A stretch of 64,000 bases of DNA, from positions 27,714,001 through 27,778,000 of the forward strand of contig OZ024750.1 in NCBI GenBank assembly GCA_964016885.1, given 5' to 3'. The position numbers and the translations under genes were made by a program. This DNA comes from Eledone cirrhosa. Lineage: Eukaryota. The notes beneath the pieces are model-generated. The model was not told where the DNA came from. It ran no database searches and worked only from the letters and a program-made list of their open reading frames with translations. Shown here one piece after another: positions 5,688 through 49,953 of the stretch. Numbering within the stretch: the first letter of the stretch is position 1; the number at the start of each line of letters is the position of its first letter.

Positions 5688-5927
5688 CTCTATATGAAAT
5701 AATGAGTTAGCAAAGCACCCGATAAGGTAGGCCCTTAGGGCAATAACATACGTTTAAATAGCTTGACAAATCGAACATTGTGGTAGGCAAAATCTAACAC
5801 AATATACCAAAGTAACGAAAGAACTAACAGGTTGTGAAAATATATATATATATATATATATATATATATATATATATATATATATACGATATTAAACAAA
5901 TGGAAACTATATTTATAAAACCATATT

Positions 5928-5993
5928 TATTTCGTTATATATATTTCTGGGATATCATATTAAAAATATGTTATGCCTTCCTCAGACAAAATA
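5928..5993 (-). ncRNA. Type I hammerhead ribozyme (family C, inverted arm)
   Basis: Exact reverse complement of 6135-6200. Confidence 0.7.
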
Positions 5994-6134
5994 CAATACA
6001 TAAGCTGTTTTATAAATAATTAGTGACATACCTTTTGAGAATGCAACTTCCTTTTAAAAAATCAACTTTTTTAAAAGGAAGTTGCATTCTCAAAAGGTAT
6101 GTCACTAATTATTTATAAAACAGCTTATGTATTG

Positions 6135-6200
6135 TATTTTGTCTGAGGAAGGCATAACATATTTTTAATATGATATCCCAGAAATATATATAACGAAATA
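6135..6200 (+). ncRNA. Type I hammerhead ribozyme (family C)
   Basis: TATTTTGT CTGAGGA ..CATATT ttt AATATG.. GAAA TATATA TA ACGAAATA. Confidence 0.75.
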
Positions 6201-6585
6201 AATATGGTTTTATAAATATAGTTTCCATTTGTTTAATATCGTAAACCTACTCCAGAAACTGTCGAGTGCTTTTATATCAGTTATAAAATATTTACTCGTT
6301 GTAACCCAACAATCTTAAATAAAACTTTTGCATATATATATATATATATATATATATATATATGCATATCTACACACAGTATATAAGTATGTACCTACTC
6401 TAGGATGACCGTTGACTCTCTCTTTCGCGGGTTTTATTTTTCCTCTCGCACGGTGTCACAAAATAACACTTCCTTACCAAACAAGTTCACTTCTATATTA
6501 ATTTTTTAGCAGCTATTGAAGGCAACTTGTTCTAACATGTGGTAATTTTTATGACGTAAACGATAAAAATCAATGTGTTGATGGT

Positions 6586-7280
6586 ACTACTACTACTGAT
6601 GATGATGATGATGATGATGGTGATGACGGTGATGATGGTGGTGATGATGATGATGGTGGTGGTAATGATGATGGCTTTAAGAAAGATAGGTTTGAGTAGG
6701 GTGAAGATGAGTAAATGGAGACAGAGGGGTGTATTTTGTGGGGGTGAGGAGGAGTTGAAGGAGGAGAAGTGTACCCGGAGAGGGGAGAGTGAAGAAAGAG
6801 GTGGGAGAGGCAGGAGAAGTAAGCATTGGGAGGGGAGGAGAAGTGAATCCTGAGAGCGTAGAATGAAGGTGGTGGTGGTGGTGGTGGTGGTGTTGGTGGT
6901 GGTGGTGGTGGTAGTGGTGAGGTGGTGGTGGTGGTCGGTTCTGCAGGAGAAGTGAACCCTGATAGGGTAGAGTGAAGGTGGTGGTGGTGGTTGTGGCTGG
7001 GGTGGTGGTGGTAGTGGTGGTGGTGGTGGTGGTCGGTTCTGCAGAAGAAGTGAACCCTGAGAGGGTAGAGTGAAGGTGGTGGTGGTGGTGGTGGTGTTGG
7101 TAGTGGTTGTGGTGGTAGTGGTGGTAGTGGTGGTCGGTTCTGAGAGCGTAGAATGAAGGTGGTGGTGGTGGTGGTGGTGGTGGTATTGGCGGCGGTGGTG
7201 ATTGTGGTGATGGTGGTGGTGGTGGTAGTGGTGGTGGCGGGTTCTGCAGGAGAAGTGAACCCTAAGAACGTAGAGGGAAG
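6586..7280. repeat. Composite repeat: (GAT)n/(GGT)n tracts interleaved with a roughly 40-bp unit CGGTTCTGCAGGAGAAGTGAACCCTGAGAGGGTAGAGTGAAG
   Basis: The unit recurs about 5 times between 6835 and 7280. Confidence 0.8.
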
Positions 7281-8038
7281 ATGGGGGATGGCGGTTTGAG
7301 AGGTGAGTGTTATAGAAGGAGTGAAATTGGAGAGATAGTAAACAGTAAACAAAATTGGGTGGGGAAAAGGAAAAATGTAAAGAATGAGAAAAATGAAACG
7401 ATAAGCAAGGTGGTAAATAAACAAATATGTAAATATATATAGGGAGAGGATTTTAGTGTGAAAGCTGGTCATCTGAAAAAGTGCTGACGTCAATTCCATC
7501 TGAAGCTTCGTCATACGTCATATAATCGGCCATTTTATAGCTTTTTAACCCTATCTACTCTTATCACATGTTTCACTTTGTCTCTATGGCTGTTTGTTTC
7601 GCTTGTTCGTCTCTCTATCACTCAGTCTGACTGCCTGCCTGCCTGTCTGTCTCTCTACCAGTCTGTCGGCCTGTCTCTCTGTTTGTTTGTTTGTTTGTTT
7701 GCCCATCTATCAGTCTATCTGTGTGTCACTTTGCTTGTAAGTTCCTTAATTTGTGTATTCCCGTGTTTATCTTGCGAAAGGCATATATATATATATATAT
7801 ATATATATATATATATATATATGTATATATATATGTATATATATGTATGTATATATATATATGTATATATATATATATGTATATATATGTATGTATATAT
7901 GTATATATATATATATGTATATATATATATATGTATATATATGTATGTATATATGTATATATATATATGTATATATATATATATATATATATATGTATAT
8001 ATATGTATGTATATATGTATATATATATATATATATAT

Positions 8039-47039: not shown

Positions 47040-47241
47040 GACAGTCGATCGACTTTCGTCAAATCGGACCGAGGAAACAATGTTTCCATTGGTCTTTCTA
47101 ATTGCTAATACTCTCTATCGCTCGCAACTCTAGGTAGAAGGAGCAACGAGAATTAAAGTGTCTTTCTCAAGGACATAACGCATCGCCCAGTCCGGGAATC
47201 GAACTCATAACCTCACGATTGGGAATGCATTTCTCTAACCA
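47040..47241 (-). mobile_element. SINE2 (CORE-type), full length
   Basis: Reverse complement of the 8902-9120 type; abuts (TA)n. Confidence 0.85.
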
Positions 47242-47245
47242 CTCC

Positions 47246-47648
47246 ACCACGCGCCTTCACTATATCTTCTTCTTCTTCTTCTTCTTCATCTAGGTCGTGG
47301 GGGCAGAGTCCTCAAACACTCATTCCAGCGAGTCCTATCAGAAGCAACCGTCTGCAAATGATCCGGCTGGACCCTCAAGCGCGACCAGCCATGCTAATGG
47401 ATGTTATCCAACCATCTTGCTCGGGGTCTACTCCTGGGTGTCATACCGGTTGGTTTTGTCCATAAAAATCTGTCATCGATGCTTTCCTGTGACATTCTAA
47501 CCACATGTCCATAATATCAGAGCTGAGATCTCTCGATCCGGAGAAGCAGTCACTCTGCCTAGAGTGGCTCTCTCATCTCCGAGCTACACACTTCATCGAG
47601 TAACTTTACTTCAAAGACCCTTCGGAAGAACCCCACTTCGTCCGCTTG
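47246..47648 (-). mobile_element. RTE LINE 3' end with (GAA)n tail
   Basis: Reverse complement has RPRSRPRARWLDNI-like coding remnants; homologous to 24535-24775. Confidence 0.7.
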
Positions 47649-48531
47649 TATATATATATATATATATATATATATATATATATATATATATATATGTTTA
47701 CCGAATTCGTAGACCAGACCCCTTTATCTTCTTCTTCTTCTTCTTCTTCTTCCTCTTCTCTCTTTTCTCTCTCTCTCTTTCCCCCCCCCCCCCCCCCCGT
47801 CAAACTTGGGCGAAATTCTTTCCTTGCTCACATTTCAACCAGGTTTGATGGTCTTTTGTCTCTTGTTCACGATTTCACCGAGTTTATATTCATAGAGATC
47901 TGGGACTTGTCTATTTCTTCTCACTTTCCGTTGCTTAAACTTTTTTGTTTGTTACCCTGGCGTCCCCTTTGTTTACGTGTCCCAACGACTTTTTTTAGCC
48001 GTTGTTCGCACCAACCTGAGGCATATGGCCCTTAAAGCGATGAAATGCCTGGGACGGTTGGAGGGTCACTGATGAAGGACCTACTTTTTCACATGCCCCA
48101 CCATTTGCAACGGGCAGCCTATTATTTTCATATATATATTATATATATATATATGTTAAAACAATGAAATAAAAAATCAAGTCATATTTATTTCATTGTT
48201 TTAACTTATATCATGACTCTGTTTTCCTTTTAATGTTTTATTGTTTACCGAGATTTATCTTAACCTACAGCATTTTCAACATATGGATTACATCGAGTTC
48301 TTCATGCAGAATAGACCCCACAACTTAGTGTGGATACCTCTGTGTATATATATATATATATATATATATATATATACAAAATTAAATTAAGGGTATTATA
48401 TATATATATATATATACAAAATTAAATTAAGGGTATTATATATATATATATATATATATATTATATATATATATATATATATATGTCAATCAATTTCTAG
48501 TTGATATATATATATATATATATATATATAT

Positions 48532-48957
48532 AGGAAAATGCATGACCCCCGACGGCAGAGCTCAAGCCGTTTCGACGGCTATTTCTGGACTAAATTAGAA
48601 TTTTTAGCGTGGTAAATAAATAGCCGAACATTTCAAGGGGTAATTCCTTATATGGAAAGATTGTAGTTGTCAAGAGGATTTGTCAATATCTCTTGTAAAC
48701 TTTCCTGTAAATTACAAGAAAGTTTGATCAGTCCTCTTGACAACTACAATCTTCCCATATAAGGAATTACCCTTTGAAAAGTTTGTCTATTTATTTACCA
48801 CGCTAAAAATTCTAATTTAGTCCAGAAATAGCCGTGGAAACGGCTTGAGCTCTGCCGTCGGGGTCATGCATTTTCCTATTACCCACTCTACTACCCTAAG
48901 TATTGAGTACTCTGGTGCGTTATGGTCTATCTGGTTCCTTACCACAACTCCTTCGTT
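48532..48957. mobile_element. Longest family B fold-back element
   Basis: Arms about 48532-48677 and 48732-48878; hammerhead 3' half at 48837-48859; tail with ACTCTACTACCCTAAGTATTGAGTACT. Confidence 0.85.
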
Positions 48958-49662
48958 ATATATACATTATATATATATATATATATATATATATATATAA
49001 TATATAAGATCAAAAGATGGTTAAAGGAGTTCCATGTATTTTATTATGCGCATTTCAAAAACAAACATCATCATGCAATAATATTTGTGTTTTCATATAT
49101 TATGTATACTCCAGTCCTACAAACTGTAGAGTGCTTCTTATCCGATATCTGCATTGCTTTATTGTACTACAATAAAACTCACCTCCTACATTATATATAT
49201 ATATATATATTATATATATATATATATATTATATATATATATATATATATATATATATATATATATATATATATATATACACACACACACGCAATTAGTT
49301 AGTTATTGAGTTTTATGGCATTGTTCAGGTTTTGGTTACACCGATCGATTTCTCACTGATTAACGTATGTGTGCACTCTGGGCGATGCATTTTTATTGAT
49401 ACAAACCTAATTATATCATTGAATGGGTGAGGGGCGACCGAGGCTGCGTCCATCCATTTCCACTAGCTTTGTATACCTAATATGATGCCTCTTGTATTCT
49501 GAAGGTATGATCTGGTCAAATTTGAGCTTTGAAACCTTCAGTAATAGCCTTTGTTCCGTGTATGAGCATAAATAATACAGTATATATATAATGTAATATA
49601 AAATTATATATATATATATATATATATATATATATATATATATATATATATATATATATATA

Positions 49663-49953
49663 TAGGAACGAGTAGGACCCCGACGGCTGAGCTCAAGCCG
49701 TTTCGACGGCTAATTCTGGACTAATTTTAGTCAAGAATTAGCCGTCGAAACGGCTTGAACTCAGCCGTCGGGGTCCTACTCGTTCCTATTACCCACTCTA
49801 CTACCAGGTGGACCAAAACGCACCAAAGTACTCAATACTTAGGGTAGTAGAGTGGGTAATAGGAGTAAGTAAGACCCCGACGGCTGAGCTCAAGCCGTTT
49901 CGACGAGCCGTCGAAACGGCTTGAGCTCAGCCGTCGGGGTCTTACTTACTCCT
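49663..49953. mobile_element. Two abutting family B fold-back elements
   Basis: Palindromes centred at about 49725 and 49905; flanked by TA. Confidence 0.8.

Follow-up and report, generated by a model that had tools for sequence, protein, structure and literature searches.

Penelope-like elements (PLEs) are known to insert as copies with an inverted arm and a one-sided tail (PMC3846280, PMC8557442), and how the arms and the lopsided tail are made is named as an open question by Craig et al. (2021; PMC8557442). A 64,000-nucleotide (nt) stretch of Eledone cirrhosa DNA (contig OZ024750.1, positions 27,714,001 to 27,778,000 of the forward strand; hereafter the window) contains short copies of this type whose inverted arms mostly stop 4–5 nt before a conserved, predicted bulged stem-loop, at a TA that matches the target.

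The window is AT-rich (64% AT) and rich in microsatellites, and comparison of the window with itself reveals numerous dispersed repeats and about 30 local inverted matches. A subset of the repeats are elements of 75–490 nt lying between (TA)n runs in the order inverted arm, direct arm, tail; (TA)n bounds nearly all copies and (CA)n or (TC)n a few, and tails measure 61–135 nt in the window families. The Penelope-like hallmark, an inverted 5′-truncated copy beside a direct copy with a one-sided tail, is present, and none of 21 inverted arms carries a tail. A preliminary description had taken the copies for PLE pseudo-long terminal repeats (pLTRs) whose 3′ tail is missing from the inverted copy, which agrees with both the published PLE pattern and all 21 arms. 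Core motifs of the type I hammerhead occur 25 times in the window, upstream of the stem-loop module and on the same strand. A full hammerhead descriptor finds 7 matches, against 0.3 in 20 shuffles, among them families C3 and E; families B, C, D and F fail it through a decayed core or a 2-bp stem II, and the 150 Rfam matches listed, of 213, include no hammerhead and consist only of microRNA-type chance matches. The copies are likely to be pieces of the terminal region (pLTR plus tail) of Hydra-clade PLEs. An origin of the fold-backs as sequencing or assembly artefacts was considered and rejected, the arms being 90–100% alike and bounded by (TA)n, with the strand-switch joints present in short reads.

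Endpoints of the inverted arms

The gap was defined as the number of bases separating the ACTC that opens the hairpin from the final base that the arm shares with the (TA)n run, and was read by eye for every identifiable inverted arm (n = 21, of which an automatic pass had mis-seeded 5), copies without an inverted arm being excluded. Fourteen arms end at a gap of 4–5, four differ by one substituted base, three stop further upstream and none downstream, and no arm terminates within the hairpin or the tail. The broad scatter of endpoints that the preliminary description had set against its own claim is not seen in the window, where 18 of the 21 arms lie within one base change of gap 4–5. All nine junctions reported there were found in the sequence, displaced by 1–2 nt or less, and eight of them are exact, at gap 5 in families C (6243, 30062) and B (19251, 48879, 49789) and at gap 4 in D (12455, 30324) and E (42102). 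The E junction, placed originally at 42100, is genuine with its bar off by one, and the D-type junction near 48212 has a strict gap of 10 that becomes 4 if one base may differ. Ending close to the hairpin thus stands, with the proposed range of 4–6 nt narrowed to 4–5 nt; extension to every family was too strong, given one exact end among three in family F and none in the single C2 copy.

The family C fold-back at 5885–6332 (+) comprises an inverted arm (5885–6061), a direct arm (6067–6243), a spacer (6244–6248), a stem-loop (6249–6269) and a tail reaching about 6332, with (TA)n on both sides. At 29801–30148 (+; ACTC 30068) the long inverted arm extends to the 5′ terminus of the 6249 copy and the direct arm is about 96 nt shorter. 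Family D is represented by a fold-back at 12208–12589 (+; stem-loop 12460–12542 with a 73-nt insert), in which the inverted arm exceeds the direct arm by about 82 nt, and by another at 30190–30678 (−; arms 30324–30494 and 30508–30678, ACTC 30319). Within family C (6062–6067, ~29975), and likewise within family D (~30508, 12365), separate copies extend to a common 5′ terminus that lies about 187–190 nt upstream of ACTC, which would fit short templates whose 5′ end is fixed. The E copy at 41721–42200 (+) has a long inverted arm containing a type I hammerhead (core 41820, minus strand), a short direct arm, a stem-loop at 42107–42148 and then the tail; its centre (41935–42040) holds five to six tandem 19-nt units, as from repeated slippage at the join.

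Family B supplies most of the remaining arms. Its longest fold-back (48532–48956, +) has arms of about 170 nt, a spacer at 48880–48884, a stem-loop at 48885–48910 and then the tail. Two fold-backs of different subfamilies stand tail to tail at 49665–49952 (ACTC 49795 plus, 49853 minus, both gap 5), joined through a 3-nt overlap inside one hairpin. The fold-back at 19190–19366 (−) has a hairpin broken by deletion, and two B copies cited in the preliminary description lack an intact hairpin, GAGT being deleted at 19245 and the loop cut at 49795. A gap of 5 is also found in copies at 19629–19777 (−; short inverted arm, ACTC 19708), 35914–36075 (−; inverted arm exceeding the direct arm by 29 nt, ACTC 35985), 41559–41664 (+; 8-bp arms, ACTC 41592) and 2173–2314 (−), where an inverted arm of about 55 nt accompanies a direct part of only about 12 nt upstream of ACTC (2244) and a tail. 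A tail-only B copy (551–627, −) begins at the same junction, with (TA)n adjoining the 5-nt spacer before ACTC (622). In family F, which the preliminary description had not covered, the fold-back at 22236–22435 (−) has a decayed ACTC near 22298 and a gap of 4 when read against the family sequence.

In the four near-matches an A replaces the base just 5′ of TA(T). These are the B fold-back at 11984–12185 (−; ACTC 12055, strict gap 9, 5 with one base changed), the B copy at 22540–22640 (+; strict gap 9), in which the inverted arm is fused to a mid-tail piece with no direct arm, the D2 mini fold-back at 48154–48345 (+; arms about 20 nt, ACTC 48216) and an F fold-back at 3541–3764 (+; ACTC 3708, strict gap 7, 4 with one base changed) that the preliminary description had missed. 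The replacement may reflect a primer with one additional base, mismatched at its terminus, or microsatellite creep. The arms of the 3541–3764 copy differ in a mixed pattern at sites that separate other F copies, as from two templates or exchange between arms.

The family B junction was also sought in public data, by mapping the raw reads of three runs and the contigs of one set to the B arm and tail (48720–48945), where 21,523, 21,984 and 24,803 reads and 17,813 contigs were placed; most reads are 90–95% alike and the organism may be a relative, and reads from restriction-site-associated DNA represent stacks, not loci. Among the best six loose-end rows of each run (747 further rows lie beyond these), the only breaks on the 3′ side are at 48879 (1745, 1815 and 1750 reads in the three runs, 167 contigs) and 48865 (2178, 1700 and 1746 reads, 63 contigs), both continuing into a TA run. 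At 48865 the consensus passes from a variant subfamily segment through TTCC into a TA run, i.e., it is the same junction as 48879, and the two together account for 3,923, 3,515 and 3,496 reads, the weakest listed rows having 515, 482 and 406. The 5′ ends of B cluster near 48814–48831 in the reads.

Across five families the distance from the junction to ACTC is 4–5 nt (standard deviation 0.55), compared with 43–86 nt to the hammerhead GAAA (16.7) and 61–135 nt to the 3′ end (26.6), which upholds the view that the endpoint is fixed relative to the hairpin. Within a zone comprising the tail and 100 nt upstream, each family offers 8–23 TA/AT runs as long as the one used or longer, including that one, and 1–14 that are strictly longer. 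All five families use the hairpin-adjacent TA, for which the chance is 1.4e-6; this and the other probabilities given are indicative only, a point that tells against the reading preferred here, because the families are not independent by descent and the tests were devised with the data already in view. Families B and F pass over closer TAs, at gap 3 and gap 0, respectively. The nearest TA by itself, named in the preliminary description as what might explain the ends in place of the hairpin, hardly accounts for them, nearer or longer TAs going unused among 7–22 others per family.

The UA(U) and stem-loop module

On the sense RNA the junction belongs to a module of the form UA(U)-N4-5-ACUC...bulge-GAGU-RC (UC instead of RC in family D), in which the ACUC/GAGU lower stem is followed by a 3′ bulge of 1–3 nt (mostly pyrimidine, mostly 2 nt) and an upper stem, with an insert of 11 to 75 nt in the stem-loop across families. 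All 10 families have a TA/AT that ends at gap 4 or 5, any other adjacent pair of gaps reaching at most 8; the joint background probability is 5e-5, and 0.011 for the five families without a fold-back copy, which were not chosen for this property. Microhomology at TA and the hairpin are thus parts of one conserved module and not rivals. The 4–5 nt would mark the 3′ edge of a primer pairing of 2–3 bp, in which case the first copied base would lie 7–9 nt from ACTC.

MAFFT alignments of the module lost the ACTC register, and stem pairs were therefore counted at anchored positions. All 9 families examined form the first three upper-stem pairs, compared with 3.0 after shuffling of the partners (P = 1.5e-4), and with the bulge fixed at 2 nt the upper stem forms in 7 of 9 against 2.8 (P = 5e-4). 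The first upper pair alternates between C-G, U-A and G-C from family to family, i.e., it covaries. Five of 30 stem pairs are G·U and none is A·C, which favours formation of the stem-loop on the sense strand. A candidate family at 3226 (minus), with its hammerhead core on the opposite strand, was dropped before these counts. By eye, the published Hydra-2_Amil and Hydra-2_Ajap consensus sequences (PMC8557442) contain the full module with a 2-nt bulge, TAT at gap 5 and 4, respectively, and GCUC/GAGC, a compensatory change relative to the ACUC/GAGU found here.

One-sided tails, inverted arms and internal initiation are already in print. The literature searched, which does not extend to subscription papers, Repbase reports or figures S1-S2 of PMC11167929, where the stem-loop of that element is depicted, yielded no description of a positioning module in which a conserved bulged stem stands at a constant distance from a UA that matches the target. 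Pattern scans for the module followed by (TA)8 gave 6 viral, at least 109 metagenome and 3 genome loci, which look like chance matches, and among the metagenome and genome loci a hammerhead core lies upstream in 2 of 113 matches, the upper stem being demonstrated in neither. One metagenome contig (L103:1-300) combines a hammerhead of PLE type with a match to ACTC...GAGTAC and a TA run, the upper stem not being evident.

Explanations for the fixed junction

The reading preferred here, to which about an even chance of being correct is assigned, is twin priming on one RNA by a hairpin-anchored enzyme, with the second nicked target end priming at a fixed internal site. A reverse transcriptase (RT)-endonuclease, perhaps as a dimer, would bind the ACUC/GAGU-bulge-stem of the sense RNA and nick both strands of (TA)n, two-strand cleavage being shown in vitro for another PLE. 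One 3′-OH would prime 37–75 nt downstream of GAGU, copying tail, hairpin and arm, while the other would pair through 2–3 bp with the UA(U) 4–5 nt upstream of the stem, where the junction is observed, and copy the arm only. Both cDNAs would come from the same RNA and their 3′ ends would join via 1–4 nt of microhomology, giving inverted arm, direct arm and tail. The internal priming suggested by the preliminary description is plausible in the light of its occurrence in vitro in another PLE; in that element, however, the other start is internal too, and not at the RNA 3′ end as the contrast drawn there would have it. The same subfamily segment occurs in both arms of 7 of 8 B copies, so a single template is likely. 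Arm lengths are also informative (n = 18; the E and C2 references were taken from the inverted arm, where a longer direct arm could not show): the inverted arm is longer by 29–123 nt in 6 copies, the direct arm by 27–30 nt in 2, and the arms end within 16 nt of each other in 10. Self-copying of a tail-primed cDNA cannot yield copies with a longer inverted arm, or those with no direct arm (22540) or almost none (2244), without later deletion, whereas two primings give them directly.

A fixed junction could also arise by resolution, if the arms were first made with a tail or within a longer intermediate and a GIY-YIG endonuclease, guided by stem-loop or tail DNA, cut the element's own TA 4–5 nt away and joined it to the target. 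This account, considered improbable though deserving attention, draws on the ascription of the tail to endonuclease-mediated resolution by Craig et al. (2021; PMC8557442) and on the requirement of the D. virilis endonuclease for the tail in recognition and cleavage (cited in PMC11167929); the conserved TA is also the target dinucleotide, and G·T wobble on the sense DNA strand would fit the strand bias equally. It sits less well with the anole PLE, whose tail edges are RT start sites measured in vitro (PMC11167929), and with the 21 inverted arms here, none of which keeps a tail remnant. Snap-back of a tail-primed cDNA on its own 3′ end, with copying until the hairpin or a bound protein blocks it and the new end annealing to the other target end via TA, is judged a shade less probable still. 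The hairpin would then be a true boundary, consistent with every deviating end lying upstream of it, with near-symmetric centres in the 10 copies noted above (some with loops of 1–3 nt) and with identical arms in 7 of 8 B copies. Yet 6 of 18 copies, and 22540, have sequence in the inverted arm that the direct arm lacks, the inverted arms of C 30068 and D 12460 keep the family 5′ terminus beside short direct arms, the wobble pairs fit the sense strand and not a cDNA template, and published Hydra elements include tail-less solo ends (PMC8557442).

Annealing of the second target end at any TA/TAT, or erosion of the arm by (TA)n with the hairpin as bystander, would be expected to find support in DNA of this composition, where TA/TAT stands at nearly every exact junction and the four one-base-off and three upstream junctions fit erosion; the consistent choice of the hairpin-adjacent run in five of five families, the nearer TAs passed over in B and F, the conservation of the TA itself at that spacing and the one dominant junction among the best six rows per run in family B reads leave TA microhomology alone largely refuted and with very little probability. 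Antisense self-priming (Arkhipova 2013) has been proposed for head-to-head PLE inversions with central palindromes (PMC3846280), and central micro-palindromes occur in window copies; the fixed end would on this account be where an antisense transcript begins or is processed. It is regarded as most unlikely, as the sense strand is the one on which both the hammerhead and the stem-loop wobble are read, and the active template in vitro is sense RNA (PMC11167929).

Several observations weigh against twin priming from a hairpin-anchored enzyme. The main one is the near-symmetry of 10 of the 18 copies, whose two arm ends lie within 16 nt and for which snap-back is the simpler explanation; the shared 5′ termini of C and D, together with the B 5′-end cluster, explain only some of the symmetric copies. 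Long inverted arms could be produced by later deletion and identical arms by gene conversion, and the junction expected of a hairpin acting as ruler could also be left by endonuclease resolution or snap-back arrest. Three arms stop upstream of the expected site: a variant B fold-back at 41214–41404 (+; (CA)n flanks, ACTC 41333, gap 9), an F fold-back at 20342–20488 (+; (TC)n flank, ACTC 20444, gap 12) and the C2 fold-back at 23073–23425 (+; ACTC 23340), whose arm stops 13 nt upstream with no TA flank. A variant at 24196 has its TA at gap 6, and the hammerhead element family I has a fixed internal end at TAT (solo arm 21678, fold-back ~26800) without ACTC/GAGT. The stem itself is weak, being present in the minimum-energy fold of 6 of 10 tails, reduced to the lower stem in 1 and absent from 3, with z-scores from 0.02 to −2.75, mostly above −2; a stem weak in isolation would suit a protein-bound site. 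By eye, the full module is present in only 2 of 6 Hydra consensus sequences, variant or partial in 2 and missing with the tail in 2 (PMC8557442), and the one PLE tested in vitro starts without target homology, inside an AC-rich stem-loop (PMC11167929). Clade and enzyme are deduced from the RNA end, no protein having been found in the window or the scanned loci: an open reading frame or motif set for RT plus GIY-YIG is absent from the window and from 118 scanned loci (the copies are too short to hold one), no full-length element copy, in which a tandem pLTR-ORF-pLTR arrangement would be visible, lies within the window, a Hydra RT motif scan found nothing in the viral contigs or in any of the 118 loci, protein motif scans gave nothing convincing, and no protein with the Hydra-clade RT/endonuclease signatures (RWK, DKT, CxCX5C, no CCHH) could be linked to these element ends.

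Related elements and other repeats

Hydra-clade elements insert in (TA)n and carry type I hammerheads near the 3′ end (PMC8557442), as the window copies do, although their tails of 30–40 nt differ from the 61–135 nt found here and the window copies of 75–490 nt lack an open reading frame. The clade comparison took in six Hydra-clade consensus sequences and three Naiad 3′ ends, and the Neptune clade, marked by a CX2-5CxxC linker and a microsatellite bias, may be an alternative home for the copies; a shared terminal RNA module is not a published criterion for the Hydra clade. Besides the two with a full module, Hydra-1_Crog has by eye a variant at gap 2 and Hydra-1_Amil a partial module, while Hydra-1_Obim and Hydra-1_Ajap stop tail-less on ATAT about 50–60 nt after GAAA; four copies of Hydra-1_Obim end at one site according to the published table, and the passages of that study consulted here contain no mention of a stem-loop or hairpin (PMC8557442). 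The Naiad clade has no canonical hammerhead, unlike the window copies, and its three 3′ ends show no such module by eye.

The anole Poseidon element PAc, in which both strands are cut and extended and a dimer is predicted, starts reverse transcription at two internal sites that bound the tail downstream of the hammerhead, using uncleaved RNA (Frangieh et al. 2024; PMC11167929). It resembles the window elements in having a stem-loop at the start region and differs in clade and in the lack of target homology; in the window elements the junction falls at a UA(U) that matches the target, 4–5 nt 5′ of a bulged stem, with a spacing conserved from family to family. In L1 twin priming, too, a second nick starts synthesis at an internal point of the RNA and the 5′ segment comes out inverted, the products being two inverted fragments with an internal deletion in place of the fixed site and duplicated arm seen here (PMC2837659). 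Non-LTR retrozymes are short non-coding PLE-derived repeats with type I hammerheads, and the fixed 5′ termini of C and D recall short non-autonomous templates of that kind, yet retrozymes form tandem arrays with a hammerhead per unit, whereas the copies here are dispersed or head-to-head with ends that do not fall at the cleavage site (bioRxiv 10.64898/2026.07.22.740005).

Several copies carry the module or the hammerhead without an inverted arm. They include a C3 copy at 4990–5212 (+; type I hammerhead 5011–5061, module 5124), an M copy at 13435–13765 (+; hammerhead core 13506, module 13630 with ATA at gap 5 and a 6-bp upper stem), a G copy at 21723–21861 (−; module 21784) with further minus-strand copies at 17922–18001 and ~40520–40620, and modules with tails in families K (22075–22188, +; ACTC 22087) and J (49096–49192, +; ACTC 49108). 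A G relative at 24060–24200 (−) has GCTT...GAGC-AC in place of ACTC...GAGT-AC and a 2-bp upper stem, and another near 41005–41083 seems to have lost the 3′ strand of the stem. Tail-less solo hammerhead arms ending in a TA run lie at 4855 (+), 13318 (+), 20212 (−) and 3197 (+), two of them immediately upstream of an element that runs in the same direction. Family I (21484–21678, +; 26697–26794, 19450–19615 and 16647–16800, all −) has a different stem with an AC-rich loop that starts right after its TAT end, and perhaps belongs to another PLE clade. A repeat of 400–600 nt (8038–8644, 17387–17796, 28235–28641) terminates in a short ACTC-GAGT hairpin, with (TA)n or (ATGT)n close behind, and shows no fold-back. 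Elsewhere, broken frames at 43398–45393 (−) are presumably those of a non-LTR reverse transcriptase, a frame at 15272–15754 (+) recalls what we take to be a Helitron helicase, and abundant repeats resembling short interspersed nuclear elements (SINEs; e.g., 1002–1235, 5284–5704, 8902–9119; up to 27 local matches) are reminiscent of the tRNA-derived SINEs of cephalopods.

In telomerase the template boundary lies 5′ of the template. The boundary element there blocks synthesis (PMC11206666), and the analogy drawn with it in the preliminary description is reversed, as on the sense RNA the stem is found 3′ of the junction, where it would set initiation and the RT would move away from it; the analogy holds only if snap-back arrest is the explanation. 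Under twin priming the likeness would be instead to a protein-bound RNA structure beside a short target-matching stretch in a sister RT group, provided that the stem is indeed bound. A wider proposal, speculative and rather doubtful as it stands, is that the module is a Hydra-clade RNA anchor like a minimal telomerase RNA, that programmed twin priming is the normal route, with the cDNAs templating each other, and that internal priming positioned by an RNA structure is a trait ancestral to PLE and telomerase RTs. If true, a target-repeat alignment region of 2–3 nt would be held at a fixed distance from a protein-bound stem.

The in vitro study of PAc located two internal starts without defining what positions them (PMC11167929). 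The families described here (10 in the window, together with the published coral and sea-cucumber elements) supply a short covarying cis-element with fixed spacing, which offers a testable explanation for lopsided PLE insertions, can serve to mark where non-coding PLE copies end and to which clade they likely belong, and bears on the choice of start site by the RTs closest to telomerase.

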